NCBI GenBank assembly: GCA_016281275.1
Contig: JAEEIH010000121.1
Span: forward strand, 1-61,811
Source of the DNA: Lachnospiraceae bacterium
Lineage (GTDB): Bacteria; Bacillota; Clostridia; Lachnospirales; Lachnospiraceae
Length of the DNA: 61,811 bases
Reading direction: 5' to 3'
This document shows, piece by piece, positions 24,521 to 43,262 of this stretch. The notes under the pieces were generated by a model. That model was given only the letters and a program-made list of their open reading frames with translations, did no database searches and had not been told where the DNA came from. Both the position numbers and the translations under genes were made by a program. Numbering within the stretch: position 1 is the first letter of the stretch; each line of letters opens with the position of its first letter.

Positions 24521-24554
24521 CCCCTCCCGCATAATCAAAAATATGCGGGAGGGG
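24521..24554 (+). terminator. Strong rho-independent terminator (13-bp stem CCCCTCCCGCATA/TATGCGGGAGGGG)
   Basis: Perfect inverted repeat 10 nt after the ferredoxin stop, followed by a T-rich tract. It insulates the downstream 35-kb block. Confidence 0.8.
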
Positions 24555-24664
24555 GATCGGTTTGCTTTCTTAAACGATCAATCTTTTTTCCATTCCCTTT
24601 GCACAATCTAATCGAATATGGTAATGTTATGTGTGGGTGTTTTTTTTCTTACACGTATATTATA

Positions 24665-24861: not shown

Positions 24862-26661
24862 GTGAAAAACAATCAATTGCTTCCTTTTGAGAGGAACCGT
24901 TACTATGCGGGCAAGATGCTCACTTCGGCCGATTTTCAGGCAGAGCAGAATTATGTAAATAATAAGCGAAGATTCGTGAACAACATGATGTTCGGTTCGG
25001 GTATCGTGTGCGGATGCAATGTCCTGAGTCTGGACGATCTTTCGATACTTGTCGAGAGCGGCATGGCAATCGACAATTTCGGAAGAGAGATCGTTATTGC
25101 TTCCTCGGTAGTCAAAAAGCTTTCCGCTATTGAGGGCTTTGATACCATTGCCGGAAATAAAGCGCTTCTTTGCATTAAATACCGGGAGGACAATGTCCAT
25201 ACCGTTTATTCCGTCGGATATCAGGATAACAAGAGCTCCGAATATGAATTCAACCGCGTGAGCGAGAGTTATGACCTCTTCCTGATGGATGCGTCGAATG
25301 TTGTTCCGAGAGTTGAGCTTGAAACCGAGCTCCTTGCGCGACAGAGCCTTTACAGTGATTCGGATCACAGGATCACGCTCATAGTTCCTTCGCAGATCCC
25401 GAAAGGAAAATCGGCGAAGGTCGTTGTCCGTATCGACAAGATCTCTTCAAAACCTGTCACTCTTTCGTATGAGAGTGTTCTTCAGGTACCCGTATTCACG
25501 ACAGCAAACCGTTCAAGAGAATTGTCTCTCGAATTATCTGACATTAACCTTCTCGAGGGCGGATGCATTGAAAAAGAATACTGGATCACCGCGCAGGATA
25601 CACCCGTGGACAGCGCGGAGCTTGTCATTAAGGCAGGTTCGTCGCATCTCAAGATCGACGGTCATGACGTGGATATTCCCGACGTTCCTTCGGTAAAGGT
25701 GAGCATCGTGGAGATCGACACGGAATCGCTTGTCACCCGCGAAATCTCAAAGCTCAGTCTTGAGCTTCGTTCAGGTCTCAATACAACCGATTATCTTGTG
25801 CTTGCCTGCATTGACCTTGTTCGCACGGAAAGCGCTTATATCATCGATAAAATCTCCGACGGCAATGACAAAAGGTATATCGCTTCTCCTTCACAGCATT
25901 TTGAAAGAACGAAGCTTTCGGCATTTTTCTCCGATACACCTGTTCATGAGGAAGAAACAGGCAACACCGAAAGAGTGATTTCTGAGGACAAGGAAAGAGG
26001 GATGTCCTCGAATCATTTCCAGATCGCCACGGGCACGCTTGAAATCCCTCTCGGTGAAAAGCCGAGGCGAGGGGATGTCAGGTATTCGGGCGAAATCATG
26101 CATGGACTCGGAAAAGGCAATGTCTATGTTGAAATAGGTTACGAGCAGTTCGAAGACGACAAATCTCTCGGCATGAGTGCAAAGAGCACCGTTTACGGCA
26201 ATGCTGAGCTTTTTGCGACCTCGAATGACAATATACCGGATGTCGAAACCGCCGTTAAGGTCCTTAACGATAAAGGCAGTTTTATCGTTGCGGCAAAGAT
26301 AGGGCGTGAACCCGAATTCCTTACCCTTACATACAGGTGGGTTGCAATCAGATTCCCTTCGGGTAACGACCTCGGACTTCTTGAAAACAACAACAATAAG
26401 AGTATCACCGTCGATACACCTACTGTAATACTCGGAACAAAGGACAGCTATTTCTTCAACGTCAACTTCAACAACATGGAGAAATGCAGCGTAGCCTACG
26501 AGCTTACAGAAGAGGGAAGCGGCGAGATCACGGCCGAAGGCGTATATACGGCGCCCGCCAAAGAAGGCGTATTTGAGATCAGGATCTACTGCGTGGAGAA
26601 TCCGTCTGTTTGCACATACGCATATGCGATCGTCAAGAAAAAAGGACTTGAAAATGCCTGA
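24862..26661 (+). CDS. Hypothetical 599-aa protein, first gene of the block (possible fibre/receptor-binding candidate)
   Basis: GTG start, 6 nt after AAGGAGAGG. No TM segment. The N-terminal motif LPFERNRYYAGKMLTSADFQAEQNY...GSGIVCGCNV is one I recall from conserved hypotheticals in tail-like loci (unverified). C-terminal beta-rich region with ITAEGVYTAPAKEGVFEI (Ig-like-domain style). Confidence 0.35.
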   Translation: MKNNQLLPFERNRYYAGKMLTSADFQAEQNYVNNKRRFVNNMMFGSGIVCGCNVLSLDDLSILVESGMAIDNFGREIVIASSVVKKLSAIEGFDTIAGNKALLCIKYREDNVHTVYSVGYQDNKSSEYEFNRVSESYDLFLMDASNVVPRVELETELLARQSLYSDSDHRITLIVPSQIPKGKSAKVVVRIDKISSKPVTLSYESVLQVPVFTTANRSRELSLELSDINLLEGGCIEKEYWITAQDTPVDSAELVIKAGSSHLKIDGHDVDIPDVPSVKVSIVEIDTESLVTREISKLSLELRSGLNTTDYLVLACIDLVRTESAYIIDKISDGNDKRYIASPSQHFERTKLSAFFSDTPVHEEETGNTERVISEDKERGMSSNHFQIATGTLEIPLGEKPRRGDVRYSGEIMHGLGKGNVYVEIGYEQFEDDKSLGMSAKSTVYGNAELFATSNDNIPDVETAVKVLNDKGSFIVAAKIGREPEFLTLTYRWVAIRFPSGNDLGLLENNNNKSITVDTPTVILGTKDSYFFNVNFNNMEKCSVAYELTEEGSGEITAEGVYTAPAKEGVFEIRIYCVENPSVCTYAYAIVKKKGLENA

Positions 26662-26729: not shown

Positions 26730-27563
26730 ATGATCTATGAGATCGGAAATATGTCACTCAACTGCATAAGAGAGGTGTTCAGATGCGAAGCAGACAATGT
26801 CAGCATCTGTCAGGATATAAACGCAGCCGCCGACACCTGTTACACGCTTGTGACGGTTAAGGATCACGGTCTTGCCAAGGAACTGATCGAAAGCTTTGAA
26901 GCTGAAGGAAAACAATTTCTTGCCACGGCACCGCATCCGGATGGGTTTCTGATCCTGTTCCCGTATAAGCCGGAGAGACGATTGTCACAGTTTTATATGG
27001 GTTCACTTTTCTCGAATGAGGAGTGCGAGAAAATCTGCGTCAACCTTGTCATGGAATGTATGAGGGCTGACATACCGTATCCGTTACTTTATCTGATACT
27101 TGACCAGGATCAGATCGACCTGGGAAAGGACTGTTCGATCAGCTTCGGTTACGGACTCGATCTTTCGGCATATGACAGTAGCATAGGAGAACGCGAATGT
27201 GCCAATAAATGCGCCGAAATCGTGTTTGGGCTTATCGAATCAAAGTCGGAAGCCAAAGCAATGAGTTACGAGCTCATGAAAAGAAAGGTACCGAAGAACG
27301 TCTACATTCATTTTGCGGAGATCTTTCGTGATATAAAAGTCACGACCGAGGCTGAAGTAAAAGTCGGTATCGTCAAAAGGGCAAGAGCATTTCTGTCGCG
27401 AAATCTGGGGAGATTTTTTAAATTGTTTATCATACTCTGCGGCATACTCGTAGTCGTGGTTCTCCTGATGTTGTTGACGCAATTGCTGGTAGGAGATATT
27501 TCGTTTTTCCGTTTGTTTAAGAATCCGTTTAAGGAGATAGGTACGGAATCGATGCTCCAATAA
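26730..27563 (+). CDS. Hypothetical C-terminally membrane-anchored protein
   Basis: 277 aa. Single hydrophobic helix near the C-terminus (FFKLFIILCGILVVVVLLMLLTQLLVG). No family recognised. Confidence 0.5.
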   Translation: MIYEIGNMSLNCIREVFRCEADNVSICQDINAAADTCYTLVTVKDHGLAKELIESFEAEGKQFLATAPHPDGFLILFPYKPERRLSQFYMGSLFSNEECEKICVNLVMECMRADIPYPLLYLILDQDQIDLGKDCSISFGYGLDLSAYDSSIGERECANKCAEIVFGLIESKSEAKAMSYELMKRKVPKNVYIHFAEIFRDIKVTTEAEVKVGIVKRARAFLSRNLGRFFKLFIILCGILVVVVLLMLLTQLLVGDISFFRLFKNPFKEIGTESMLQ

Positions 27564-27685
27564 AGTCCGTTATTACGGATAAGAAATCGGATGCGAAAGT
27601 GTCGAAACCGAAGGATCGGTACCGCAGCGCAGCTTCGGGACTGAAATCGGGTGGAATAAAAAGCATCCCGTGAGGAGGAATTCCT

Positions 27686-30052
27686 TTGAAATCAAGGGCA
27701 TTTGGTGCATTTTGCATGGTGGTTTTAATAGCGCTGACAGTGGTCGTGACGGGGTATATCACGTTTGACCAGTGTCTTGTTTATGCACCCTCGGAGCAAA
27801 ATGTCCTTTTCGGAGTTGAAGACGGAAAAGGCAACAGCTATGTATATTTTGAATCATCCGCAAATGCCGGAATATACAAGCTTAACGAAAACAATAAACT
27901 GATGGCATCCGTGGTCGACGGCTCGGGTAATCCATGGGACGGCGGCAAGGTTATTGATCTGATATATTCTTCCGGAATGATCCGGATGGCTGTCAGAACC
28001 CAGTCGGGTCTTAAAATCTTCGCATGGAGTGATGACCTTAAGGACGGTAACAGTCAGACAGTGCCGTTTTCGAATGATGTTGTTGTTTCATCGGTTTGCT
28101 TAAGCAACGGATCGCTCTTGGCGGTCACGATCGAAAAAGGCGGAACCGAGGCGGTTGTTTACAGACTCGGAGCAGCCGGTCGCGACCCCGAAGTCGTTTA
28201 TTTTGAAACGGCAGAAGGCGGACTTCGCTTCCTTGACGCGAGATATGTCAATGAAAGATTGGAAAGACTTATGTCCGACGGATCGCGGACACCCGGTTTT
28301 GCGGCATCCACAGACGAAAGAACGAAGCTTCCCGAAAATGTCGGTTTCATGGGTATCTCGATGGGTTTTTCGACCGTTGTGCGTAACATTCTCTTTATGG
28401 TTGCGATCATCTTTGCGATCATATTCTTCTTCAGAACGGTTGTCTTTAAGAGAAATTACGTATGGCTTAAAATCTACGGATTCATGATTCTGGTGGCTCT
28501 GTGCCTCTCGGCATCCATATACCTTGTAAATGAGCCCGTCAGTCATTCGAGGGCAGAAGAAAGGATGAGGGAGTCGGAGGATATACTTAGGCTCATCGGT
28601 CGCGATTTTGTCGATTATGACGGTTCACTGGGAACCGCAAGATATGACGAAGCGTATAAAGCGCTCAGCGGATATTGGGGTAAGACCGGTACGATCGCTG
28701 ATCTTTGCGTTACATCGATAAACAACGGAAGGGCACTGGTGAATGTTTCGACCCAGCTTCCTTACGGACAGTGGCTTGCGGATTCATGGGGCGAAGCAGT
28801 AGACGACTGCATAGAAAAGGCACATGCGGGCAATTCGCCGGTATGGAATGAGATCACTCTGAAAGGTGTCAGCTTCCTTACGGTTGCGCTTCCCATAACC
28901 GATGAAGCGGGCGCGAGAAGCTTTATCTCGGCTATCGTGCAATACGAGGATATCATCGCCGATAATGCGATCAACCTTATCACGTATCTCGGATATATGT
29001 TCTTTGTCTGGGGCTGTGCGCTCGTGATTATCATAATCATCAGCTATATGCGTGCGAGGGAGCTTAAGGTTCTTTCGACGACGCTGACGCGTGTCTGTAG
29101 CGGAGATCAGCTGGAGGTTGTGAAACCGCATGCCGGATCGAAAGATTTTGAAAGAATGTGGAATGCGGCTGCAGAGCTTTCCAAGGTTATGGAGAGAAAC
29201 AATTACCTCAAGAATCAGACGCTCACTTCCGTTTCCAGATTTGCTCCGCAGAATATCGAGAAATTCCTCGGCAGGGATTCCATTACGGATGTGAGAGTCG
29301 GGGACAGAGGGTCCGTTAACGGAACGGTCGCATTGGTAGAAGTCGCGAGACCTTTCATCAGGAAACGAAGCGACTACATGGACTACATGAGCCGCAACAT
29401 TGAAATATTGTGTAAATACAAAAGAGAATATTCGGGCGTGATAATCAGCGACAGCGCGACCATGTGCTCGTCGCGGATCCTGTTTGCAAATGAGAACGGC
29501 AATCCCATAGCGTTCGGGGTGAGGACGGTCGAAGCGCTGATCAAATCGGATCCGGCACAGAGAAAGCGGGCTCTCATACTGCTTCACAAGACGGAATATG
29601 AGTACGGGATCACGGGCTCGGCCGATCAGAGCTTTGCATGCATAAGCTCGACACAGCTTGACGCGATAGCGCTTCGCATTCCTAAGCTCTTGGATCTCGG
29701 ATTGCGTGTGGTTGCATCGGAGGATGCGATGGCAAACCATGTCAACGACTATTCCGTTCGTTATATAGGGTATCTTGAACTCGGTGAAAACGGCGGCAAC
29801 GTAAAGCTGTACGAAGTGCTTGATTCTGCTCCTATGGAGGAGAGAAACAGAAAGAAGCAGACGGCGCAGAATTTCAGAAGAGCGCTTGATCTTTATTATA
29901 CAAACGATTTTTATCTTGCACGAAATGTGTTTACGGAGGTAATAAAGGACTGCCCCGAAGACCTTGTGGCAAGATGGTATCTGTTCAGATGCGAAGGGAT
30001 GCTTGACGGGGGTAAGGTTGAACAGTTCGGATATGGGCTTCTTTCGGAATGA
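27686..30052 (+). CDS. Receptor-type membrane protein with degenerate class III nucleotidyl-cyclase homology domain
   Basis: TTG start, 7 nt after GAGGAGG. Four hydrophobic helices delimit two extracytoplasmic regions. The C-terminal region RFAPQNIEKFLGRDSITDVRVGD...VKLYEVLD...FRRALDLYYTNDFYLARNVFTEVIKDCPEDLVARWYLFRCE matches the RFVPxxFLxxLGKxSIxDVxLGD...YEV...D.A..Y..RC pattern of class IIIb cyclases. Confidence 0.6.
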   Translation: MKSRAFGAFCMVVLIALTVVVTGYITFDQCLVYAPSEQNVLFGVEDGKGNSYVYFESSANAGIYKLNENNKLMASVVDGSGNPWDGGKVIDLIYSSGMIRMAVRTQSGLKIFAWSDDLKDGNSQTVPFSNDVVVSSVCLSNGSLLAVTIEKGGTEAVVYRLGAAGRDPEVVYFETAEGGLRFLDARYVNERLERLMSDGSRTPGFAASTDERTKLPENVGFMGISMGFSTVVRNILFMVAIIFAIIFFFRTVVFKRNYVWLKIYGFMILVALCLSASIYLVNEPVSHSRAEERMRESEDILRLIGRDFVDYDGSLGTARYDEAYKALSGYWGKTGTIADLCVTSINNGRALVNVSTQLPYGQWLADSWGEAVDDCIEKAHAGNSPVWNEITLKGVSFLTVALPITDEAGARSFISAIVQYEDIIADNAINLITYLGYMFFVWGCALVIIIIISYMRARELKVLSTTLTRVCSGDQLEVVKPHAGSKDFERMWNAAAELSKVMERNNYLKNQTLTSVSRFAPQNIEKFLGRDSITDVRVGDRGSVNGTVALVEVARPFIRKRSDYMDYMSRNIEILCKYKREYSGVIISDSATMCSSRILFANENGNPIAFGVRTVEALIKSDPAQRKRALILLHKTEYEYGITGSADQSFACISSTQLDAIALRIPKLLDLGLRVVASEDAMANHVNDYSVRYIGYLELGENGGNVKLYEVLDSAPMEERNRKKQTAQNFRRALDLYYTNDFYLARNVFTEVIKDCPEDLVARWYLFRCEGMLDGGKVEQFGYGLLSE

Positions 30053-30149
30053 AACTGTTGCGTAAGAGAAAGAGCCGCCGGCACGGATGACCCGTCGGGG
30101 CGATGAGTCGGAAGCGTAATGTTTCCAAAGAGGAGGGATTTAGGGGAGT

Positions 30150-31364
30150 ATGCAGTTCCTGACAATTCTTATAAATTCAATAAAAGCCAAATTTACCGCT
30201 GCATGGACGAAGATCACGAGATACACGCAGAAACAGTTTGTTCTTGCGAAGATCACGACAGCCATACGTCAGTTCTTTACAAAGACGCTTTCTGTAAAGC
30301 CCAGACACAGCAAGGATTATTATGGCTTTCTCGCGTGGCTCATAAGCCGGAAGCTGGTTTATGCGATACTGCTTACACTTGGGGTACTGAGTCTTTTCTA
30401 TCTGCTTGTGATCAATCCTGTTTTCCAGTCATCGGATGAATCGGACGGACTTCCGATCTACAGCTACGATTCTCTCGCGCTCAGATTTACGAATGATAAG
30501 GTCAAGATCAAGGCGGATTCGGGCTATATCGCGTATGTCGGAGATGTTGAAGAAGGCGCATGCAAGGGTGACGGCGTTCTCTATGACAAGGAAGGTAATC
30601 TTGTTTATGCCGGTCAGTTCTCAAACAATATGTATAACGGAAAAGGAAAAACATATTATAAAAACGGTCAGACGCGTTATGAGGGCGATTTTATCGACAA
30701 CATATATGACGGAGAGGGCACTCTTTTAAGGCAGACCGGAATTCGTGAATATATCGGCGGTTTCTCACGCGGACTTAAGGAGGGGAGCGGAGAACTGTAC
30801 GATCCGACCGGAAAACTTGTTTTTTCGGGCTTGTTCTCGAGAGACAGGCTTGTTTATTCGGATTTCCTCGGAAGAAGCACACAGGAAGCGAGAGAACTGT
30901 ACACCGGAGCAACCGCGATCTACAGAGGCCGGGATGATTTCATCGTTACGATGCCCGATATCAATGCGATGTACGAGGGCAGCCTCAACAGTGATACGGT
31001 GGACGATTCCATTACCGTTAAAAGTGTGTTTGTTCTTGAAAACCGCTTCTATATCGACGGGGAGCCGATCTCCACGATCAGGGGTCTGACCGATGCTTTC
31101 GGTGAGCCTTATTATGAGGGCAACACAAGGGTAAGACTTGCGGAAGCTGTCGGCATCAATTCGCTTAATGAAATGGGTCATGCTTTTTCAGGTAAGGTTG
31201 ACATGACGCTCTCGAATCTGTTTGACGATGCGTACGATGTTGAATCATTTGACAGAGAATACACTTTGTACCTTTACACATTCAGATATGAAGGACTTAT
31301 GTACACCTTCTTCTGCAACGAAAGATACGGCGGATTTGAAATGTACCAGATCACCAAGGAATAA
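30150..31364 (+). CDS. MORN-repeat protein with N-terminal membrane anchor
   Basis: 404 aa. TM YGFLAWLISRKLVYAILLTLGVLSLFYLLVI. Consecutive MORN-like units (YAGQFSNNMYNGKGKTYYKNGQTRYEGDFIDNIYDGEGTLL..., YIGGFSRGLKEGSGELYDPTGKLVFSGLF). Confidence 0.65.
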   Translation: MQFLTILINSIKAKFTAAWTKITRYTQKQFVLAKITTAIRQFFTKTLSVKPRHSKDYYGFLAWLISRKLVYAILLTLGVLSLFYLLVINPVFQSSDESDGLPIYSYDSLALRFTNDKVKIKADSGYIAYVGDVEEGACKGDGVLYDKEGNLVYAGQFSNNMYNGKGKTYYKNGQTRYEGDFIDNIYDGEGTLLRQTGIREYIGGFSRGLKEGSGELYDPTGKLVFSGLFSRDRLVYSDFLGRSTQEARELYTGATAIYRGRDDFIVTMPDINAMYEGSLNSDTVDDSITVKSVFVLENRFYIDGEPISTIRGLTDAFGEPYYEGNTRVRLAEAVGINSLNEMGHAFSGKVDMTLSNLFDDAYDVESFDREYTLYLYTFRYEGLMYTFFCNERYGGFEMYQITKE

Positions 31365-31441
31365 TGTAACCTCGCTCGTATAATCGTTTGTAGGAAATGA
31401 CGGGACAGGTCTTTTGTATGTAATACGGAAAGGAGGAAAGC

Positions 31442-33604
31442 ATGAAACGAAGGCTGTTATATATCGTTACATGTGCCGTTATGGTCGCTGTTTTTTCAGT
31501 GAGCGACGTGATCGGAAACTCCTACCTTACCGTTTCGGCAGATCCCGTGGGGAATGAAGCTCCGGCAGGTTTGGATATTTCGGGATCGATTGCTGCGATC
31601 GGCATGAACGGACTTAAGGGCGGTACGATCGAACCGGTGCGTCCCAAGAAGATCTTTCTTAGCGAAGTAAAGAAGCTTGCGGTTTCAAAATCGAAGGAAT
31701 ACAAGAAAACAAAAGTTTCGATCATAACAAAGAAAGCGAATTATACGGATGCGGTTAAAAGAATCGCGCAGAAAAAGAAGAAGCTCAGCACTTTTTCATG
31801 GATGCCTCTTTTGAACTTTAATTTCCCGACCGACCCGGGATTTACCGAGGAGTTCGAATTCAATTTTAAGCCTGTTTCGATACAGTCGGCGATCACGGAC
31901 TTAAACCATAAGCTTACCGATGATCTTTATTCGATATACGAAAAAGCGACGAACCTTTATGTGAAGGTTTATACACTTCAGGAAAACATTAAATTCAACA
32001 ACAAGCTTCTTGAAGCAAGGAAGAAAACGCTTGAGAGAAATGAAGGAAGACTTTTGCTGGGACTCGCGACACAGAGTGATGTGGATGCGATCAAGGGGGC
32101 GATAACAAAGCTCGAGAACCAGATCGCCACTCAGGAAACGTCGTTCGTGAATGAAAAGGAAAAGCTCAAAGGCATGATTGGCGTGGATGTCAGATCGAAT
32201 TATGTTTTTGAGAATCCTTACCAAAGCGCGATCATTGAACGTGCGGATCTGGAAGCCCTTATACAGCATACTCTTGATAATTCTCAGGATTTTTTTGAGG
32301 CAAAATCCACAACTTCGCTCGCAAGGACGACACTTAATCAGTACTACAAGCAGATGCTCAGCAAGTACGGCAGTCATATGGACATCGTTAAGAAATATGT
32401 ACAGGCTGCCTTAAACGGAGAAGAAGTTGACGGTCTTGCTCTTAAGGTTGATTTTGACGCGCTGTTAAAGAAGATCGATGAAAAGTGGGAAGGAAAGCTG
32501 AAGATACTTTTCATAAAGATCCCGAAGCTTTGGTTCAAGGGTGCTACAGCCGGTTCAAGATATATCGAGGACGAGCCTTACGCTCTTTACAATGCGATAC
32601 TTGATTATCAGTCCGCAAGACTCGATCAGGAAAACCTTGAAAAGGACATAAGGTCCCAGGTGAAGGATGCGTACGAAAATGTGAAAGCGCTTGAGAAAAC
32701 CTACAGAAATGGGGTCAAGGAGCTTGATCAGAAAGCACGGGAGCTGGAAAAGGCGCTTTTAAAGAACCAGATGGGAGAGCTGACTTTTGCGGAATACACG
32801 GAGCTTCAGGAAGATTTTGAGAGTACGCAATTGACGGTAAATGAGGACCTTGATTCATACACGCAAGCGCTTGTTTCACTTGACAGACTTACCTGCGGAG
32901 GAATTACCGCAATCCTTAAAGGCGACGGTTTGGACTCGGAGGATACGGTCGGCGGAGACAGCTATTTGGTTGCTGAAATCGCCGAGGGAGTTAATTACTA
33001 CATCAAGGTCATGCTTGAATCGAATATTTTCGAACTCGGTCTTCATGTACCGGAGGACTTTGAGGTGAGCATTTCGAAATTCGAGTTGTGGGTTGACAAC
33101 ACGAAGATCGGTTCGTCGGATCCCGCCAAACCGATCAAGCATCTCGGTCTTATACTTGACGGAAGTGAGACGGTATTCCTGAGGTTCTATGACGACAACG
33201 GAGAGATGATCTGTGATTATACCATCGATCCTTCGCAGTACAGCGGACCGGTGGATATCATAACCGGATATCTTGTGAAAAAGAGAGAAGACGCTGTAAA
33301 AACTATCGGAACTTACACTCTTCAAACAAATGATGCGAGCGGGACGGTGACATTTACCTTTAAAGCAGACGAATCGGTCGAGGGAGCGGAAAAATTCAAG
33401 CTCCTGACATCAAACGGATCGGTCATCGCGAACACGGACACGCCGAACGGACAGGGAATGACCTATCTTTCGCTTCTGCAAGGTTCCGTGACCGACATTA
33501 CGGTTTCGATAACAGATTCTAACGGGAAAGAGATCATTAAAGGAAAACCCGATCCCGAAACAATGACAGTAAAGACAGAGCCGGAGGGAGGTGACGCGCA
33601 GTGA
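31442..33604 (+). CDS. Secreted/anchored TolC-like (outer-membrane-efflux-protein-like) coiled-coil protein with beta-rich C-terminal domain
   Basis: 720 aa. Signal-peptide-like N-terminus MKRRLLYIVTCAVMVAVFSVS. TolC-style helical repeats (RLLLGLATQSDVDAIKGAITKLENQIATQETSFVNEKEKLKGMIG). GGAAAGGAGG RBS. Confidence 0.5.
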   Translation: MKRRLLYIVTCAVMVAVFSVSDVIGNSYLTVSADPVGNEAPAGLDISGSIAAIGMNGLKGGTIEPVRPKKIFLSEVKKLAVSKSKEYKKTKVSIITKKANYTDAVKRIAQKKKKLSTFSWMPLLNFNFPTDPGFTEEFEFNFKPVSIQSAITDLNHKLTDDLYSIYEKATNLYVKVYTLQENIKFNNKLLEARKKTLERNEGRLLLGLATQSDVDAIKGAITKLENQIATQETSFVNEKEKLKGMIGVDVRSNYVFENPYQSAIIERADLEALIQHTLDNSQDFFEAKSTTSLARTTLNQYYKQMLSKYGSHMDIVKKYVQAALNGEEVDGLALKVDFDALLKKIDEKWEGKLKILFIKIPKLWFKGATAGSRYIEDEPYALYNAILDYQSARLDQENLEKDIRSQVKDAYENVKALEKTYRNGVKELDQKARELEKALLKNQMGELTFAEYTELQEDFESTQLTVNEDLDSYTQALVSLDRLTCGGITAILKGDGLDSEDTVGGDSYLVAEIAEGVNYYIKVMLESNIFELGLHVPEDFEVSISKFELWVDNTKIGSSDPAKPIKHLGLILDGSETVFLRFYDDNGEMICDYTIDPSQYSGPVDIITGYLVKKREDAVKTIGTYTLQTNDASGTVTFTFKADESVEGAEKFKLLTSNGSVIANTDTPNGQGMTYLSLLQGSVTDITVSITDSNGKEIIKGKPDPETMTVKTEPEGGDAQ

Positions 33605-36321
33605 ATAAAAAAAGAAAAATCTCCGTCATTGTGATCTGCGCGGCAATCCTCGCAGTGGTTGCGGTCTCGGTGCCGATGACGCTCTACGCTATATTTAACG
33701 AGGCAGAGCACACTCATGTAAAGGATGCCGATGTGGAACCCGGTACGCTTCTTATAGGAACCCACCTCATCCACATCCAGGCGATGAACGATGAAATCTA
33801 CAAAAAGGCGATGGACACGGCAGCGGACTCCGGAAATGACAAGATATATTACAAGTCCGAGCTTGCGGGCGGTCAGTGGTACGAGATAACATCCGCCACT
33901 TCGGTGGAGGATATCACTACCGGCGGCGTGCCTGTCGAGGCGTCCGTCATAGAAAGCATTTTCCTCCGTTGGCACACAAAGAGCGATAAGATCACATACG
34001 ATCTGATGCTTGGTGTTCCGGTCAGCATTTTTGATACGGACGATCCCTACAATCTTATGAAGAGAGTAGAGCTCCAGCCCATCAGAAACCAGTATGACAA
34101 TTATGTCGAAAAGGGCGATCTTGAGGATCTTGACGCATATAATTACAATTTCATCAAATCCTTCTACGACTATGCGGGACCTGCCGCACACAGCCTCGAA
34201 ACCGATGCGTGCGATGCGTACATAGATGCGCTGCAGAGATTTTATGAAGAACAGGCTTCGAATGAGGCTCCGGCGGGAGAACTCGAATTCATACTGAAAG
34301 CTCAGGCAAGTGTGAACGCTCAGCGAGAGATTTACATCATGAATAATGTCGCTCCTTACGTTGAGATCCTTTCGGACGCATTTAACGGAAAGAGCAGGGT
34401 GGGATTCAGAATCCCCGAGTATTCCATCAGACTTTGCGATCCTTCATTTATTCCGCCCGCAATAGCCTTTGAACCGCCTCCCAAGGAGGAAAGTGAGGAT
34501 GATGAGGACGACGATGATGACGATGATGAAAAATTCAGATATATAACGACGGACATGCTTGTTACCGCGGTAACAAGTTCGACCAATAATATGTCCGATA
34601 CCGTTAATGAGAATTCATCGAAGGTTATCGGAGGAGGAACGACAGTCCTTTCGACAAGACAGAGCGAAAACATGATGAAGCTCACGGATTCCGCTCTCGG
34701 AGGAAGGTACAGAGAAGCGGAAACAGCCGTAAAAACGCTTGTTATCCTTGACAATATTGAGAACTGTCCCGACGGTGTCGATCTTAAGGCCGAGGACGAT
34801 ATGCTCGTAAGCGACCTCGTTCCCACATCGATGAAGAGGTATCAGGAAGGTCTCGGTGCCGGTACATCGGCTCAGTACAAAAAAGAAGCAGAAAATACAA
34901 ATACGACCGTTGCGAGACTTAACAAGCTTCTTAAAAATCAGATCCTCGGACCGAACTCCGAAAGAGGAGAGCTTGAATTCTTTATTGATTCCGCAACAAA
35001 GAGGGAAGACCCTCAGGTAGCCATTGATTACCTTCAGACGCTGATAGACGGAACGGAAGTCCTAAAGACTGTTCCGATAGATGACGAATTTAGGGATATT
35101 GCGCTTCAGAGCATTAAGGAATATAAAGAGTGGCTTGAAAAAAAGAAAAGTGAGATAATTGCTTCAATGGGGGGCTCAGATCTTTCCGACCTGCTTTCGG
35201 AAAAGGAGAAGGCAATCCTTGAGAAGCTTACCTGCCTTGACAACAACGATCTCAACGGATCGAAGAAAGCCGATGCGAAGATTGCCGAGCTCGATGCAAG
35301 GATCGATGCGCTCGGCGGCGATACGAGCAGTGTGAACGATGCCTTAAACGGTGCGCTTGACGGACTCAATTCGGACGATATGAACAGCCTCAAGGAAGGA
35401 ATAGATGCGCTCGAAGCGCTTTCCGGACTTTATCCCAATGCAGTCACCGCAGCACTCGGAGATCTTGCCGAAGCGATCGAGACTAAGATGAACGCCGACA
35501 ACGCCGGTTCGGGAGACGGAAGCGGTTCGGGAGATGGAAGCGGTTCCGGGGACGGAAGTGGCTCCGGAGACGGAAGCGGTTCGGGAGACGGAAGCGGTTC
35601 GGGAGACGGAAGCGGTTCGGGAGACGGAAGCGGTTCGGGAGACGGCAGCGGTTCGGGAGACGGCAGCGGACTCGGAGACGGTAGTGGCTTGGGAGATCTT
35701 TCGGGACTTCTCGATGATGTTCTGGGATTACTTGCGGACACCTCTAATCTCCTTGAGGGCAAAGTTGATGCCGACGCAATGCTCGGACTTCTGGAAGATC
35801 TTCTCGGCGGATCTTTGAGCACCTTGTCCGATAAGGCACAGGCAAGCGCCGTGATAGCCCTTGATATGTTTGCACGGTTTACGAACAACAAATCGATAAA
35901 GGATCTTGTGGAGGAACTTGCCGGAGCGTTCCTCAGGCAGGGAAATATCTGCTTCTACGTGCAGTACAAGGGAGTGGCCGAATATATTCCGCTCTATACA
36001 CTTTCGTTGTGTGCGGGATACAGGTACCTCTTTGATAACAGCATACATAAAGTAGTACTTACAAGAGGCGATAAGGATTACTACGAATTCAATCAGTTCT
36101 CCTCAGAGGTACTAAGACCTGAAGACGTTGTGGATGAAATGGCAACCCAGACCGTTTTCAGAAAGGATCTTTTTGCTGAAGAAACATATTGTAAATCAGC
36201 GCTTGGGTGGGAAGCCGTTTATCTTATCGACAATTATACGGGAATCTGTGCGGACGATGAGATAATGCAGCTTGCGGAAGAATTATACAACAAGATGGTT
36301 GAAGCTTCTCTTCCCGCCTGA
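33601..36321 (+). CDS. Hypothetical 906-aa N-terminally anchored protein with poly-acidic tract and (GSGDGS)n repeat
   Basis: The GTG start overlaps the upstream stop (GTGA, 33601-33604). TM KISVIVICAAILAVVAVSVPMTLYAIF. EESEDDEDDDDDDDEK near aa 297-312. About 60 aa of GSGDGS repeats near aa 636-700. No family recognised. Confidence 0.55.
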   Translation: MNKKRKISVIVICAAILAVVAVSVPMTLYAIFNEAEHTHVKDADVEPGTLLIGTHLIHIQAMNDEIYKKAMDTAADSGNDKIYYKSELAGGQWYEITSATSVEDITTGGVPVEASVIESIFLRWHTKSDKITYDLMLGVPVSIFDTDDPYNLMKRVELQPIRNQYDNYVEKGDLEDLDAYNYNFIKSFYDYAGPAAHSLETDACDAYIDALQRFYEEQASNEAPAGELEFILKAQASVNAQREIYIMNNVAPYVEILSDAFNGKSRVGFRIPEYSIRLCDPSFIPPAIAFEPPPKEESEDDEDDDDDDDEKFRYITTDMLVTAVTSSTNNMSDTVNENSSKVIGGGTTVLSTRQSENMMKLTDSALGGRYREAETAVKTLVILDNIENCPDGVDLKAEDDMLVSDLVPTSMKRYQEGLGAGTSAQYKKEAENTNTTVARLNKLLKNQILGPNSERGELEFFIDSATKREDPQVAIDYLQTLIDGTEVLKTVPIDDEFRDIALQSIKEYKEWLEKKKSEIIASMGGSDLSDLLSEKEKAILEKLTCLDNNDLNGSKKADAKIAELDARIDALGGDTSSVNDALNGALDGLNSDDMNSLKEGIDALEALSGLYPNAVTAALGDLAEAIETKMNADNAGSGDGSGSGDGSGSGDGSGSGDGSGSGDGSGSGDGSGSGDGSGSGDGSGSGDGSGLGDGSGLGDLSGLLDDVLGLLADTSNLLEGKVDADAMLGLLEDLLGGSLSTLSDKAQASAVIALDMFARFTNNKSIKDLVEELAGAFLRQGNICFYVQYKGVAEYIPLYTLSLCAGYRYLFDNSIHKVVLTRGDKDYYEFNQFSSEVLRPEDVVDEMATQTVFRKDLFAEETYCKSALGWEAVYLIDNYTGICADDEIMQLAEELYNKMVEASLPA
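35506..35700 (+). repeat. 18-nt in-frame tandem repeat GGTTCGGGAGACGGAAGC x about 10-11 (encodes GSGDGS)
   Basis: Read directly. The central five to six units are identical and the outer ones are degenerate (GGACTCGGAGACGGTAGT, GGCTTGGGAGATCTT...). Confidence 0.9.
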
Positions 36322-36342: not shown

Positions 36343-36960
36343 ATGGCAGATTATTCGATAATAGCCGATGTGAGCAATTACCTCTGTAAAATATTCAGAG
36401 AAAAAATGTGCCCGGAACCGATTCCTTCGGCCGGAAACATTCAGGTGTCATCGCCTTCGTCACAGGACGTTGACTACCTTCTCGGCGTGTACCTTTACGA
36501 CATAAAGGATTGCGCCGACGTTACCCGCCCCGACAGGGTAAGAAGGGGCAGGTACCAGCTGGTTAAGCCGCCAAAGCCATATACGCTTGAATATATGGTT
36601 TTTGTAAACGGTGCTACGCAGATGGGTCTCGAAGCACCGGATATACAAAAAATCGTAGGTAGGGTTGCGCAGATAGTAAATGACAATGCTTCGGTCCTTC
36701 CGACTGAACTACAGCCGTGGCTTGATACACCCGAACCCCCGATAGTGTTTTCTCAATCGAAGATTTCACTTGAGGAAAAGGTAAGAGTGTGGTCCGCGAT
36801 CAACAAGCCGTATCAGGTAAGCCTCTTTTATAAGGTGGCACCGGTATTCTTGTCGAGCGAGATCCTCATCAATACACCTGTTGTAGCGGATGCAACCTTC
36901 AACCTGCAAACGCAACAGGAAAGGAGGGAGATGTACCTGAATGGCAATAATCAATCATAG
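36343..36960 (+). CDS. DUF4255 / Pvc16-Afp16-type tail terminator (cap) protein
   Basis: 205 aa. N-terminus MADYSIIADVSNYLCKIFREKM...VSSPSSQDVDYLLGVYLYDIKD fits the Pvc16 N-terminal domain pattern. Starts 22 nt after the upstream gene. Confidence 0.7.
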   Translation: MADYSIIADVSNYLCKIFREKMCPEPIPSAGNIQVSSPSSQDVDYLLGVYLYDIKDCADVTRPDRVRRGRYQLVKPPKPYTLEYMVFVNGATQMGLEAPDIQKIVGRVAQIVNDNASVLPTELQPWLDTPEPPIVFSQSKISLEEKVRVWSAINKPYQVSLFYKVAPVFLSSEILINTPVVADATFNLQTQQERREMYLNGNNQS

Positions 36961-37705
36961 GCTTGATCTCGTGATCCGGCTTATCGATGCGACAACAGGC
37001 AGACCGGTCGATGAAAAAAATGTTTCTTTTGCCAAAGACGGCGTTCCGATACGTATGATCGAAAAAGATGGCGGGATTTATTATTTGATCAATGCGGGGA
37101 GGGAGAACTTCGAGCTTACTTTGAACATCTACGGATATGAAGTAAAGAAGTTAACGATCGACTATGGGGAACTTGAAGAACGGATACCTGAGAAGCTGAT
37201 TTGGCTTCTGCCGAAAAACGCACTCTCTCTGGAGGGGACCCTTAAAGGGATCAAATCACTGTGTGCGGTAAGACTGGTAACTCCGGGCTGTTTTGTCAAC
37301 AGCTACGATGCCAGAAAAAATGTTATAACGCTGTTCAATCCTCATAACCGTGTGATGCAGCATCATCTGTACGGCATTCTCGATTCCGAAAGAAAGTCTT
37401 TTGAAAAGATTTATCTTAAGGAAGAGGATGGACTCAAGACGATCAGTCCCACAGAACCCTTAAGGAGGAATCCGGGGGTCAACGATCCGATCGAGCGGAT
37501 AATTCCGGGGGAAGTTTTCGAAGACGGAAGGTACCTGCTCAGGATGAGGGACGACGCCGACAAAATTGAGGTTCTGGTCAGGTTTGAAGCAGACGACCGG
37601 GAATATTTCCAGAAGGTTGAGCTTCACGGAGCCGGGCAGGATGAACTTGACAGAGAAAAAGCATTCAGGGATGAGGGAAAGGAAACGGAGGTGGAGACAC
37701 AGTAA
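36941..37705 (+). CDS. Hypothetical protein (beta-sandwich, carboxypeptidase-regulatory-like domain guess)
   Basis: 254 aa. Overlaps the DUF4255 gene by 20 nt. LVIRLIDATTGRPVDEKNVSFAKDGVPI...YYLINAGRENFELTLNIYGYEVKKLTI resembles prealbumin-like fold repeats. Weak call. Confidence 0.35.
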   Translation: MAIINHRLDLVIRLIDATTGRPVDEKNVSFAKDGVPIRMIEKDGGIYYLINAGRENFELTLNIYGYEVKKLTIDYGELEERIPEKLIWLLPKNALSLEGTLKGIKSLCAVRLVTPGCFVNSYDARKNVITLFNPHNRVMQHHLYGILDSERKSFEKIYLKEEDGLKTISPTEPLRRNPGVNDPIERIIPGEVFEDGRYLLRMRDDADKIEVLVRFEADDREYFQKVELHGAGQDELDREKAFRDEGKETEVETQ

Positions 37706-37706
37706 T

Positions 37707-38087
37707 ATGTCAACAGTAGTTAATGCGGGAGCATCTTTAATGTGTCCGTACGCAACAGGACCGGCTACTCTTAATGTATCGAGTCAAAGTAATGTTATAT
37801 CGGGAACACCCGTCGCAACAATAAATGATTGCGCACCGGGAGGAAACATATTGTTTCCGATGTGCATCAGCCCGAGTAATCCGGCATATGTAGCGGCTAC
37901 AGCTGCGGCAATGGGCGTATCTACGCCGGTTCCGTGCACACCTGTTTTTCCGGGACCGTGGACCGCGGAAAAAACAACCGTATCTATAGGTGGAAGCTTG
38001 TGTTTGACATCAGGCTGCCAGCTGGTGTGCGGGATGGGAGGAACGATCAGGATAACCTCACCCGGACAGTCAAAATTAAATTGTTGA
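37707..38087 (+). CDS. DUF4280 PAAR-like spike-tip protein
   Basis: The track ORF (37566-38087) is over-extended. ATG 37707 lies 1 nt after the upstream stop. VVNAGASLMCPYATGPATL...VATINDCAPGGNILFPMC...PCTPVFPGPW...CQLVCGMGGTIRITSPGQ matches the DUF4280 Cys/Gly pattern. Confidence 0.75.
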   Translation: MSTVVNAGASLMCPYATGPATLNVSSQSNVISGTPVATINDCAPGGNILFPMCISPSNPAYVAATAAAMGVSTPVPCTPVFPGPWTAEKTTVSIGGSLCLTSGCQLVCGMGGTIRITSPGQSKLNC

Positions 38088-38103
38088 AAGGAGAACATAA
38101 AAA

Positions 38104-39795
38104 ATGGGAGAATATTTATCACCCGGTGTTTATGTGGAGGAGTATGACAGTTCACCGCGATCGATAGAAGGCGTGGGAACCAGTACAGCGGGTTTTGTCG
38201 GACTTGCTGAAAGAGGACCAGTAGAGGGAGCTCCTTCGCTTGTTACTAATTTTGCGGATTTTGCAAAGCAGTTTGGTGGATTCCTTTCCGAATTCGTTTT
38301 CGGAGAATACAGATATCTTGCCAACAGCGTTGAGCAGTTCTTCCTTAACGGCGGAACAAGATGTTATGTTGCCAGGGTAGTACCCGACGATGCGAAGAAA
38401 GCTTCGATAAAGAAGGGTATCCTTTCTCTCACGGCAGCTAACGAAGGAAAGTGGGGAAACAAGATCCAGTTCTCAATCGTTTCTTTTGCAAAGAGAAGAC
38501 TTCAGATCATTGCAAAGAACGGTGAAGTTTATACAGCAAAGAATTCCGACGGCTTTAAGGAAGGCGATGTTGTTGTCTGCGAAGGTGAATACAACAAGAT
38601 CACATCCGTGAGCGACGGAACCGTTACTTTCGCAAAGCCTTTTAAGGCAAATATCGTTGATGCCGACATCATTCCCAAGACATTCCTTTGCCTTGTGGAA
38701 TACGAAGCACAGATCAAGTACAACGATATAGTTGAGAATTACGCAGGATTCAACTTTAATCCCGCATCACCCAACTTCATTGCATCAAAGATGGCAAAGA
38801 GCGATCTTGTACGTGTTGAAGTTGATGCACCCAAGACAGAGAATCCCATCGCTGAGATCTTTGGCAAGGATGAGCCCGGTATTATCCTTCTTGCGGGCGG
38901 ATCGGACGGATCGATCGCAAAGGTTGGTCCCCAGACCTTCATAGGAAAGGATGACGGCCCCACAAAGCGTACGGGTATCAAGTCGTTTGTTGAGAACTCG
39001 ATCGTCAGCATGATGGCGGTTCCCGGCATCACAATGCCCGAGGTTGTTGTTGAACTCGTTGCTCATTGCGAGAGATTAAAGAGCAGATTCGCGGTTCTTG
39101 ATATGCCGAAGGATCTCATTAAGCCGAAGGATCTCATTGAATATCGTAATCTTATCGATTCGACATATGCGGCAATGTATCATCCCTGGATCCAGATGTT
39201 CGATCGTTCGTCAAACAAGGCAGGATTTATTCCCCCTTCGGGCGCGATCATGGGCGTTTATTCCAGAACAGATATCGAGCGCGGTGTTCATAAGGCTCCC
39301 GCAAACGAGACGGTTGCCTGCACAGGTCTTATGGTAAATTACACGCAGTCCGAGCAGGATATCCTTAATCCCGAAGGAATCAACCTCATTCGTATCCTTC
39401 CCGGTCAGGGCATCCGTGTTTGGGGCGCAAGAACCGCAAGCTCCAATTCGGCATTCAAATATGTCAACGTCAGACGTCTCTTCATCTATGTTGAGGAGAG
39501 CATCAAGAACAACACCAACTGGGTTGTATTTGAGCCCAATGATACAACTCTCTGGGGCAGAGTGAGCGTAACCATCTCATCGTTCCTTACGACATTGTGG
39601 AGAAACGGCATGCTTGCCGGAGGTTCACCCTCGGAGGCATTCTTTGTTGATATCGGTCCCAATACGATGACCCGTGATGATATCGACAACGGAAGACTTA
39701 TCTGTAACATTGGTATAGCACCTTCCAAGCCTGCAGAATTTGTAATCTTCAGAGTTACACAGCATACTGCAGAGTCCGGTGGTTCAGAAGAATAA
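38104..39795 (+). CDS. Contractile tail sheath protein
   Basis: 563 aa. Classic sheath N-terminus MGEYLSPGVYVEEYDSSPRSIEGVGTSTAGFVGLAERGP and C-terminal domain (YAAMYHPWIQMFD, GVHKAPANE, INLIRILPGQGIRVWGARTA). Confidence 0.93.
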   Translation: MGEYLSPGVYVEEYDSSPRSIEGVGTSTAGFVGLAERGPVEGAPSLVTNFADFAKQFGGFLSEFVFGEYRYLANSVEQFFLNGGTRCYVARVVPDDAKKASIKKGILSLTAANEGKWGNKIQFSIVSFAKRRLQIIAKNGEVYTAKNSDGFKEGDVVVCEGEYNKITSVSDGTVTFAKPFKANIVDADIIPKTFLCLVEYEAQIKYNDIVENYAGFNFNPASPNFIASKMAKSDLVRVEVDAPKTENPIAEIFGKDEPGIILLAGGSDGSIAKVGPQTFIGKDDGPTKRTGIKSFVENSIVSMMAVPGITMPEVVVELVAHCERLKSRFAVLDMPKDLIKPKDLIEYRNLIDSTYAAMYHPWIQMFDRSSNKAGFIPPSGAIMGVYSRTDIERGVHKAPANETVACTGLMVNYTQSEQDILNPEGINLIRILPGQGIRVWGARTASSNSAFKYVNVRRLFIYVEESIKNNTNWVVFEPNDTTLWGRVSVTISSFLTTLWRNGMLAGGSPSEAFFVDIGPNTMTRDDIDNGRLICNIGIAPSKPAEFVIFRVTQHTAESGGSEE

Positions 39796-39815
39796 TTCGA
39801 GAGGAGGAAAAATAA

Positions 39816-40319
39816 ATGCCGGCTTCAACTTATGAAAACAGTGATGGATTATCATATCCGTTAACTAAAATGAACTTCCTCGTAACGGTCAACAGCGTTG
39901 CGGGAACAGCTGCTTTCAGCGAGGTTACAGGAATTGAGGCATCTGTCGATGTCATCGAATTCCGCCAGGGTAATGCTCACAGCCTTTCACCCGTTAAGGT
40001 TCCGGGTCTCGTAAAGCATGGTAACGTTACTCTTAAATTTGGTTATACACTTGACAGTGCTTTCAAGACATGGATTCAGGAATGTGTTTCCGAAGTAAGA
40101 GGACAGATGCCCAGAAACGATCTTCAGATCGAGCTGATCGACATCAACGGCGGTGCTCCCAAAGCAGCGGTAAATGCATCTCTTGACGGTTCGAGAGTTT
40201 GGCTTCTTACAGATGCATGGGTTTGCAAATATACAGGTCCCGACCTTAATGCAACCACATCCGAAATCGCGATCGAATCTGTTGAGATTGCGTACGAGGA
40301 ACTTGTTATTCCTAACTGA
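39816..40319 (+). CDS. Tail tube protein (T4 gp19 / Afp1-type)
   Basis: 167 aa. MNFLVTVNSVAGTAAFSEVTGIEASVDVIEFRQGN...VKVPGLVKHGNVTLKFGYT fits the conserved phage tail region (tube) pattern. GAGAGGAGG RBS. Confidence 0.88.
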   Translation: MPASTYENSDGLSYPLTKMNFLVTVNSVAGTAAFSEVTGIEASVDVIEFRQGNAHSLSPVKVPGLVKHGNVTLKFGYTLDSAFKTWIQECVSEVRGQMPRNDLQIELIDINGGAPKAAVNASLDGSRVWLLTDAWVCKYTGPDLNATTSEIAIESVEIAYEELVIPN

Positions 40320-40352
40320 TGCGCTTGTCGCATGATTTTAAGTGTTTTTCAT

Positions 40353-40397
40353 ATACCGTATTTCAGGGGAGTCTTTGAGACTCCCTTGAGGCGGTAT
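40353..40397 (+). promoter_or_regulatory. Compound stem-loop in the 142-nt gap after the tube gene (ATACCG...GGGAGTC-TTTGA-GACTCCC...CGGTAT)
   Basis: Inverted repeats read directly, with no long T-run after them. Candidate partial terminator or mRNA-stability element separating sheath/tube from the lower-copy genes. Confidence 0.4.
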
Positions 40398-40461
40398 GAT
40401 GGGGTAGTAAAATGAAGTAACCCGCTTATAAAGAAAGCCCGCTTCTAAAGAGGAGGTAATT

Positions 40462-41021: not shown

Positions 41022-41068
41022 CACTCGCGTAAAAAAGTCGAATAGCGATTCCAAAGAGGAGAACGTCA

Positions 41069-43231: not shown

Positions 43232-43262
43232 AATAACCTGCAGATAAAAGGAAGGTGGAAAA

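Follow-up and report, generated by a model that had tools for sequence, protein, structure and literature searches.

A five-gene membrane module inside a Lachnospiraceae contractile injection system operon: a candidate envelope docking or trigger complex

The DNA analyzed here (hereafter, the window) is a stretch of 61,811 nucleotides from a Lachnospiraceae bacterium (GenBank assembly GCA_016281275.1, contig JAEEIH010000121.1, positions 1 to 61,811 of the forward strand), taken from the chromosome in a metagenome-assembled genome (MAG) of rumen-type Lachnospiraceae, in which a contractile injection system (CIS) locus encloses five consecutive genes for membrane or envelope proteins, referred to as M1 to M5 below. 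Lying between the gene for a Cis13-like protein (cis13L) and that for the cap, these five genes seem to encode a lineage-specific complex that docks the CIS to the cell envelope or triggers it, a reading that we favor with only moderate confidence. The genomic coupling of the module to the CIS, as judged from the loci compared, appears secure, and of this we are highly confident. Rather than as a uniform set of five, however, the unit is better described as a core of the cis13-like gene, M1 and M3, with M2, M4 and M5 as later additions.

Coupling of the membrane module to the CIS

The original prediction had regarded the module as apparently operon-fused to the CIS structural genes and as preceding them; while the co-transcription is supported, the position has to be revised, because the open reading frame (ORF) at 24862-26661 has a CIS13-family N-terminal domain, which puts the module inside the CIS operon (from the cis13-like gene to the cap gene) and not in front of it. 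The five ORFs were found at the coordinates predicted, each preceded by a GGAGG-type ribosome-binding site, and both of the tight junctions noted earlier are there: the GTGA overlap of the M4 stop and the M5 start (33601-33604) can be read directly from the sequence, and the M5 stop, ending at 36321, is separated by 21 nt from the cap ATG at 36343. No terminator-like hairpins were found in any of the intergenic gaps within 26661-36343, and in orthologous loci the genes from cis13L through the cap gene are spaced by medians of 0-23 nt. A terminator and a conserved promoter are located only upstream of the cis13-like gene, the putative promoter block (~24597-24632) being kept in the three nearest relatives (and in all four close relatives in alignment A9) and a counterpart of the 24522-24556 hairpin, at which the transcription unit before the operon ends, being present in the loci designated L001, L004 and L005. 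As the tight spacing is conserved and the promoter and the terminator are confined to that upstream position, sequence evidence supports a single CIS transcript shared by all five genes.

An alignment of M4 homologs (A1) identifies relatives in 300 genomes that represent species; locus counts were made on the best 80 of these, provided that the flank of a given locus sufficed for scoring the gene in question (at least 7 kb downstream for the sheath, at least 3 kb downstream for M5, and at least 7 kb upstream for cis13L, M1 and M3). These 80 genomes represent Lachnospiraceae and their allies (Acetatifactor, Butyrivibrio, Hungatella, Eisenbergiella, Anaerotignum, Lachnospira, Dorea), and cultured isolates (Butyrivibrio sp. 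AE3009 and FCS014, and Lachnospiraceae bacterium 48-33) are among them. The co-occurrence of the five genes with CIS cores proved largely positive: a sheath gene was found in 56 of the 57 M4-anchored loci that could be scored for it, in the same order beside the cap, sheath and tube genes, M5 in 64/64, and cis13L, M1 and M3 in 63/63, and no M4 locus lacking the other module genes was seen among these M4-anchored loci. The order of the module genes is kept across at least 80 species despite median protein identities of 27-40% (M2 27%, M5 29%, M1 37.5%, M4 38%, M3 40%), as compared with 68% for the cap, 69% for the sheath and 76% for the tube, and despite flanks that vary from locus to locus, with glgB being a neighbor in the three closest loci only.

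The one M4-anchored locus scored without a sheath, L036, which had been considered a module without a CIS, does not make for a clean counter-example: its apparently ORF-free 7 kb turned out to be a giant RHS-repeat ORF, and the genes upstream suggest a permuted locus (an Rfam scan of L036 found nothing). Upstream of its cis13L are anti-sigma-like and histidine kinase (HK)-like genes, which in the window come last in the locus, and in several other loci an AAA ATPase and an HK-like gene directly precede cis13L. Since these genes precede cis13L elsewhere and end the locus in the window, the operon is circularly permuted among lineages, L036 probably being one such permuted locus, to judge by its gene order. 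A different neighborhood was noted in L158, a Clostridia MAG locus with the full module, where the stretch just upstream of cis13L (4545-6119, minus strand) has an SLT lytic transglycosylase gene and an OmpR-type response regulator/histidine kinase pair.

How far the module extends beyond its closest relatives was judged from a sheath-profile scan of metagenome contigs, in which loci with at least 5 kb upstream were scored, and the result is a graded one. Among loci with a sheath at least 60% identical to that of the window, 8/8 have M4 and M5, plus M1-M3 where these were in range; at 49-55% sheath identity, two of the 11 loci (L189, with a guanine-cytosine (GC) content of 48%, and L213, 65% GC) have the arrangement cis13L-M1-M2-M3-cap with no M4 or M5, and the remaining nine have none of the module genes; at 41% or less, module genes are found in 0/9. 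A corresponding scan of IMG/VR mostly returned distant sheaths (identity of 54% or less) without module genes, the sole informative locus being L084 (31% GC, sheath 49%), which has cis13L, an M1-like gene, an M3-like gene and the cap gene only, and whose M1-like protein found three proteins in a homolog search. All loci that bear the module have M3, even the distant L084, L189 and L213, while M2 is missing from eight of the 80 loci (L008, L012, L017, L033, L053, L062, L066 and L072), in six of which the cap gene lies upstream of cis13L. From this distribution, cis13L, M1 and M3 are the widest and probably the oldest unit, M2 has been added or lost, and M4 and M5, by the same gene-content comparison, are confined to the Lachnospiraceae-type clade. 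L189 (3-1079) and L213 (2-1096) also have an extra ORF with a C-terminal transmembrane (TM) segment directly upstream of cis13L, which in L189 encodes Fn3_assoc and CHB_HEX_C_1 domains.

Predicted architecture of the Cis13-like protein and of M1 to M5

Hydrophobic segments were located with a Kyte-Doolittle scan combined with the charges flanking them. The anchors or signals claimed for all five proteins, i.e., the tail anchor of M1, the four TM segments of M2 and the N-terminal segments of M3-M5, were recovered, their flanks obey the positive-inside rule in each of M1-M5, and the TM positions recur in 65-78 orthologs per family. The MORN repeats of M3, the TolC-like repeats and beta-rich C-terminus of M4 and the acidic tract and (GSGDGS)n of M5 that had been noticed earlier were likewise borne out, and no match to a toxin, enzyme or known secretion-system family was found in M1-M5 with Pfam, NCBIfam or PHROGs, the last of which gave no informative family for any M protein.

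The N-terminal domain of the Cis13-like protein matches NCBIfam NF053767 (E 4e-24, residues 9-145 vs model positions 4-138), and its 85.5 bits compare with a cut-off of 370 bits for the full-length CIS13 equivalog, with only the N-terminal third of the model being aligned. Its C-terminal sequence looks Ig-like by eye only; there is a weak match to the Anabaena thylakoid-anchored CIS baseplate entry 7b5h (E 0.06), and a profile of cis13L against PDB sequences gave nothing significant. The scan found no hydrophobic segment, and hence no TM helix, in its 599 residues, the TM segment at this locus coming from the next gene, M1. The two genes adjoin in 70/70 loci (no more than 60 nt apart in 97%), and theirs is the sole adjacency within the module that is never broken.

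M1 has a single C-terminal TM segment (232-250) preceded by five K/R residues, with residues 1-230 predicted to be cytoplasmic. An AlphaFold2 (AF2) model made on 31 homologs gives residues 1-207 a bilobal kinase-like fold (predicted local distance difference test, pLDDT, 83; predicted template-modeling score, pTM, 0.71), for which Foldseek returned 213 PDB matches at E<=1e-3, all 50 of those listed being protein kinases, as are most of the matches listed for the viral structure library BFVD. At the sequence level, the M1 profile weakly matches PAK1 (E 0.09), none of 42 family members has a Pkinase Pfam match, and neither a Gly-rich loop nor the beta3 Lys, the HRD Asp or the DFG Asp are among the conserved columns of alignments A3 and A5 (positions judged by eye). 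M1 is termed a pseudokinase because it has the kinase fold without conserved catalytic motif residues; going by the model, it is a catalytically dead kinase-fold protein facing the cytoplasm. Its best-conserved part is the predicted extracytoplasmic tail of 25 aa, GDxPxLRLFxNxFKxIGTESLLQ. A likeness to the kinase-homology domain of M. tuberculosis MviN (Rv3910), which is among the structural matches of M1 (3ouk; template-modeling score, TMt, 0.54), lies in an inactive kinase fold attached to the membrane at the cytoplasmic face of an envelope protein; the Rv3910 domain is, however, fused to a MurJ-like flippase and not linked to a CIS, and there is no sequence-level relationship between the two. 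M1 would document a new membrane-tethered bacterial pseudokinase, its fold being that of a predicted model.

M2 is sensor-like in its layout, with TM segments at 5-23, 235-253, 263-281 and 435-453, two variable ectodomains (24-234, about 210 residues, and 282-434, about 150 residues), and the N-terminus, the TM2-TM3 loop and residues 454-788 predicted to be cytoplasmic. Nearly all of its conserved columns fall within the cytoplasmic domain, the ectodomains being less conserved, and that domain ends in a TPR-like segment (a signal in 10/39 members). The family comprises 237 clusters at E<=1e-30. The cytoplasmic domain received no assignment from PDB (profile A7) or Pfam (39 members), and its interpretation as a degenerate class III cyclase, considered on account of an RFxPxxxxxxLG motif, was dropped, given no Guanylate_cyc Pfam match in the 39 members and no cyclase in PDB with profile A7.

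M3 consists of a basic cytoplasmic N-terminus (1-69) holding a conserved juxtamembrane motif, a TM segment at about 70-88, and ~315 extracytoplasmic residues with MORN repeats at about 126-240 followed by a C-terminal domain. The repeats match PF02493 (E 5e-11), and profile A8 finds the MORN chains FAP266, MORN1 and MORN3/4 in PDB (E 1e-20 to 1e-10, residues 128-236).

M4 opens with MKRR and a hydrophobic stretch (6-24), i.e., a signal peptide or anchor spanning residues 1-24, continued by a disordered linker. It matches OEP PF02321 (E 7e-10, two stretches) and TIGR01844 TolC (E 7e-6), and its 320 homologs are named "TolC family protein" in Lachnospiraceae MAGs. The AF2 model (pLDDT 75) shows two TolC-type helical repeats (65-495, with helices 85-246 and 282-483) and two beta-sandwich (Ig-like) domains at the C-terminus (517-712), and the top 43 Foldseek matches in PDB are all TolC/OprM/CusC/VceC channels (E 9e-9 to 1.5e-4, TMt 0.47-0.62). 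Strands at the barrel position, though, are just three residues long in this monomer model (69-71, 119-121, 125-127, 254-256), so that M4, as modeled, is a TolC fold without a convincing beta-barrel. A basic-aromatic loop (346-380) is disordered in the model (pLDDT below 50 at 353-374) and is highly conserved. TolC/OprM outer-membrane factors share with M4 the duplicated long-helix hairpin architecture, from which M4 departs in its Gram-positive-type host, its N-terminal Sec-type signal or anchor, its two extra C-terminal beta-sandwich domains and its surroundings, a Pfam scan of the neighbors having found no adjacent pump or membrane fusion protein (MFP) genes. M4 documents a TolC-fold family in Gram-positive-type bacteria outside the efflux context.

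M5 has a TM segment or signal at 7-25, a conserved N-domain (28-290), the acidic tract EDDEDDDDDDDE at residues 299-310, a repetitive coiled-coil-like middle and (GSGDGS)x10 at residues 636-695, where the DNA has 10.7 tandem copies of an 18-nt unit (35505-35696). A C-terminal Cu_amine_oxidN1 domain (PF07833) was found in 20/39 orthologs (best E 7e-7) and in the L158 ortholog, with the M5 of the window itself having no match at E<=0.1; profiles of M5 and M2 against PDB sequences gave nothing significant. M5 would be a large wall-associated protein.

Proposed docking or triggering, and the competing explanations

Lachnospiraceae are Gram-positive-type, monoderm bacteria. Across their single membrane and thin wall, the module could fix the position of the machine and possibly the time of its firing: the M1 pseudokinase, the C-terminal domain of M2 and the basic N-terminus of M3 would dock the periphery of the baseplate, the M1 tail would join M3, M4 and M5 outside the membrane in an assembly that spans the wall, and the variable ectodomains of M2 could give sensory input. 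What speaks for such a division is the predicted topology, according to which the conserved domains of three module proteins (M1, M2, M3) face the cytoplasm and about 2,200 residues per module set, most of its mass, lie outside the membrane. The likeliest contact with the baseplate would be made by the C-terminal part of the Cis13-like protein with the M1 pseudokinase domain, and this pair is the first contact candidate because the genes are never separated, the Anabaena Cis13 domain is fused to a TM segment, and their pairwise distances covary, even if confounded by adjacency. The strongest mirror-tree partial correlations of pairwise distances were 0.70 for M4-M5, 0.63 for M3-M5 and 0.61 for cis13L-M1. 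A partner-switching pair and an HK-like protein encoded in the locus (described below) point to regulated assembly or firing. Taken further, and this is a tentative extension that we consider doubtful, at least 300 Lachnospiraceae species, cultured Butyrivibrio included, might run a membrane-anchored, outward-firing CIS, a functional analog of the type VI secretion system (T6SS) in Gram-positive Firmicutes whose trans-envelope complex would have arisen independently out of the tail-anchored pseudokinase, the MORN protein, the barrel-less TolC-fold protein and the wall-binding giant, and in which Cis13 would be the baseplate-membrane adaptor, as TssK is in T6SS.

Several observations weigh against a docking or trigger complex and are to be set beside the above. 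The mirror-tree signal is suggestive only, as the best pairs are also neighboring genes, and the full extracellular CIS (eCIS)-type gene set, with a fibre-like gene, a cap and an AAA ATPase, is compatible with a released particle. The original prediction had held that related CIS loci lacking the five genes would speak against it, and these do exist in part: same-lineage loci carry the module, whereas L084, L189 and L213 have no M4 or M5, some sub-lineages have no M2, and a CIS lineage of the L202 type (about 54% sheath identity; about 49-55% across L177, L182, L185, L188, L190, L202, L203, L207, L236) has none of the five. L202, which alone of these nine was examined in detail, has the order sheath, tube, large ORFs, baseplate hub, an Afp15-like ATPase being encoded on the other strand, and no ORFs with TM segments beside the sheath. 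As related CIS lineages lack some or all of the five genes, these form a modular accessory of one clade and are not something that CISs require in general, and, given the L202-type lineage and the sub-lineages without M2, the module is not essential for CIS assembly as such. In L036, what comes after M5 is not the cap and sheath but an RHS protein of at least 2334 aa (14934-21980; Sec signal, PF05593 E 5e-59), whose ORF extends past the end of the locus. Because a CIS tube is too wide for the lumen of a TolC-type barrel, M4 cannot be a mere conduit and is more likely a strut or gate; moreover, the signal peptides of M4 and M5 may be cleaved rather than retained as anchors.

The most serious competitor, albeit an unlikely one, is that the module is the sensor or trigger of an intracellular, self-directed CIS, as in Streptomyces: damage to the envelope or an attacking phage would be sensed through the variable ectodomains, the CIS recruited to the membrane, and its firing would kill the producer, with no delivery across the envelope taking place. 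The variable ectodomains of M2, combined with its conserved cytoplasmic domain, would suit a sensor, the locus has regulators of its own (the STAS and anti-sigma-kinase-like pair and the HK-like membrane protein), no lysis cassette is visible at the end of the locus, and CisA provides a precedent in another monoderm (PMC12237407). However, the ~2,200 conserved extracytoplasmic residues (M3, M4, M5) exceed what a sensor needs, M1, M3 and M4 are, by region conservation, best conserved outside the membrane, and the fibre-like protein (whose C-terminus is Ig-like by eye), together with the PAAR-like and spike genes, suggests an external target.

Rather improbable, in our opinion, is a classical released eCIS, with the five proteins aiding its export, retaining or displaying it at the surface, or protecting the producer from its own or kin particles. 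Apart from the eCIS-type gene set already mentioned, such a role could account for the module evolving faster than the core (27-40% vs 68-76% identity), as is the case for surface proteins under diversifying selection. It is harder to reconcile with the conserved 200-aa domain of M1 being cytoplasmic and always encoded beside cis13L, immunity or display leaves the conserved cytoplasmic domains of both M1 and M2 unexplained, and the module contains no lysis or export enzymes.

The two alternatives that the original prediction had itself raised, cargo and surface proteins simply sharing the transcript, are disfavored. That M1-M5 are unrelated surface proteins merely carried on the CIS transcript is very improbable: the data tying them to the CIS are, admittedly, all genomic, yet their order is kept at low identity amid different flanks, subsets of them are retained between cis13L and the cap at GC contents as different as 31%, 48% and 65%, and M4 was not seen without the other module genes. 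Their being CIS cargo or effectors, as large proteins without annotated functions inside a CIS locus might be, is hardly credible with Sec-type signals or TM anchors in all five pointing to insertion into the membrane of the producer itself, the genes occupying that end of the operon where the fibre and cap genes are, domains of toxins or enzymes not being detected, and the set being conserved and syntenic instead of swapped, as effectors are.

Locus layout and comparison with known systems

Proteins of the window were assigned with Pfam and NCBIfam profile matches, and the features of the locus are collected in Table 1. The nearest relatives of the window are named "MAG: Lachnospiraceae bacterium", and contig JAIKVM010000079.1 of GCA_024685735.1 carries the same genes. 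Housekeeping genes (typA, metK, proS, glgB and others) occupy the window up to 24218, whereas from 24862 to about 61.9 kb all genes are on the plus strand and belong to one CIS locus.

Table 1. Features of the CIS locus and of its upstream boundary in the window
Feature	Position	Strand	Description
4Fe-4S ORF	between 24218 and the hairpin		68 aa
Hairpin terminator	24522..24556	+	CCCCTCCCGCAT...ATGCGGGAGGGG, then T-rich; after the 4Fe-4S ORF
Candidate sigma-70-type promoter	24597..24632	+	TTGCAC, 17 nt, TATGGTAAT; upstream of the cis13-like gene
cis13-like gene	24862..26661	+	599 aa; first gene of the operon, M1 next
M1	26730..27563	+	277 aa; tail-anchored pseudokinase (predicted)
M2	27686..30052	+	788 aa; polytopic sensor-like protein, 4 TM segments
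M3	30150..31364	+	404 aa; bitopic MORN-repeat protein
M4	31442..33604	+	720 aa; TolC-fold protein
M5	33601..36321	+	906 aa; large extracytoplasmic protein, start overlaps the M4 stop
Cap gene (Pvc16_N/DUF4255)	36343..36960	+	PF14065 E 2.8e-21; 21 nt after M5
CIS structural core	36941..56482	+	assigned with Pfam and NCBIfam
Distal part	56580..61051	+	STAS, HATPase_c_2, 80-aa ORF, AAA+ ATPase (Cis15-like), 2-TM HATPase_c membrane protein

The 11-bp sequence TGTCGGACTTT, which occurs three times as a direct repeat in the 5' leader of the operon (24668-24700), was considered as a regulator site and rejected because the three closest relatives do not share it; an insertion of ~95 nt in the leader (about 24700-24800) is missing from those three as well.

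The core runs in the order of a 254-aa ORF, DUF4280 (PAAR-like), sheath, tube, a 120-aa ORF, DUF6760 and two large ORFs, followed by two CIS_tube proteins, a VgrG-related protein, a spike OB domain, gp25, a 1015-aa baseplate protein, Baseplate_J and Tail_P2_I. With the sheath, gp19-type tube, spike/VgrG OB, gp25, Baseplate_J, Tail_P2_I, Pvc16_N cap and AAA+ ATPase found in one cluster by Pfam, the locus belongs to the eCIS/Afp-PVC type. The two large ORFs directly after the tube (41069-45542; 720 and 759 aa) have no family match beyond a tube-like (gp19/CIS5) segment at the beginning of the first one (E 7e-4 and 0.016), and their products may be an adaptor, cargo fused to a tube segment, or a protein of the tape-measure kind.

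The partner-switching pair of the locus, a STAS protein (PF13466, E 2e-13) and a HATPase_c_2 anti-sigma-kinase-like protein (PF13581, E 5e-18), is encoded at 56580-57386, after the baseplate genes and before the AAA ATPase; the pair is also found on the L159 contig, and a homolog of one gene or the other in L019, L036 and L065. At the end of the locus (60161-61811), a 296-aa HATPase_c protein, with a hydrophobic N-terminal stretch read from the sequence as apparently two TM segments and with no HisKA match, is followed by a 300-aa SH3_3 protein. Outside the CIS locus, the window encodes a 1621-aa multidomain signaling protein (10984-15849, minus strand; Ser/Thr kinase, AAA_16 (STAND-like), TPR, GAF and GGDEF domains), and GlgB (21651-24218) has a Lys/Ala/Glu-rich repetitive tail of ~110 residues (KAEKAAETAK-like) past its Alpha-amylase_C domain.

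CISs are classed by how the baseplate relates to a membrane: released (eCIS), anchored by TssJLM (T6SS), anchored to thylakoids, or cytoplasmic with CisA. TssJ-TssL-TssM of T6SS and the module have in common a multi-protein envelope assembly encoded with the contractile machine and large extracytoplasmic parts, and the cytoplasmic domains of the module could dock the baseplate. The module differs from TssJLM in its monoderm host, in its eCIS (Afp/PVC)-type core and in its folds (pseudokinase, MORN, TolC-like, CuAO-N1-like), with no Pfam or NCBIfam match to TssM (IcmF), TssL (DotU) or TssJ in the five proteins or their neighbors.

In the thylakoid-anchored CIS of Anabaena, Cis13 anchors the machine via its own TM helix and Cis12 has an extension (PMC8894136). 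That system, too, is of the eCIS lineage and ties a Cis13-type N-terminal domain to a membrane anchor, although the window has a Cis13-like protein without a TM segment, a separate tail-anchored protein encoded beside it, and four further envelope proteins. CisA of Streptomyces (SCO4242) is a bitopic protein that is needed for firing and whose N-terminus is predicted to contact the baseplate (PMC12237407); the likeness to the module is that the host is a monoderm, that the gene for an accessory membrane protein takes the place of the fibre in a cluster of the eCIS type, and that the N-terminus is cytoplasmic. CisA, however, is a single protein whose cytosolic region is disordered and whose outer domain resembles a substrate-binding protein (SBP), whereas the window has five, among which M1 has a folded cytosolic pseudokinase and an outer part of 25 residues and M3 has an outer MORN domain, so that by architecture none of M1-M5 fits the CisA family. 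In haloarchaea, the clade-specific 6-TM protein Hbor_38620 correlates with membrane-anchored archaeal CISs (PMC11566945), being similarly a clade-specific membrane gene beside a CIS core in a host without an outer membrane; it is a single protein with a 150-aa cytoplasmic domain and no TolC-like, MORN or pseudokinase parts, by which description it is set apart from the module.

By analogy, TssJLM, Cis13/Cis12 of Anabaena, CisA and Hbor_38620 are functionally nearest, each being a clade-specific membrane component that would set the mode of action of its CIS. A lineage-specific CIS membrane accessory is, therefore, of a known kind, whereas the present one has a composition, a size (five proteins), a modular make-up and a host group that are not known for such accessories, and the literature searched contained no description of a membrane module in Lachnospiraceae or Firmicutes CISs. 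As its carriers are abundant in the gut and rumen, the ecology of these communities would be affected by a weapon that acts on contact as well as by a device for programmed death. That hundreds of Lachnospiraceae from the gut and rumen have the module points to one more way, evolved independently, of coupling a contractile machine to the monoderm envelope, next to those of T6SS, Anabaena, Streptomyces and haloarchaea, with the Cis13-like/M1 pair, the conserved M1 tail, M3, M4 and M5 being the parts of it that are open to testing.

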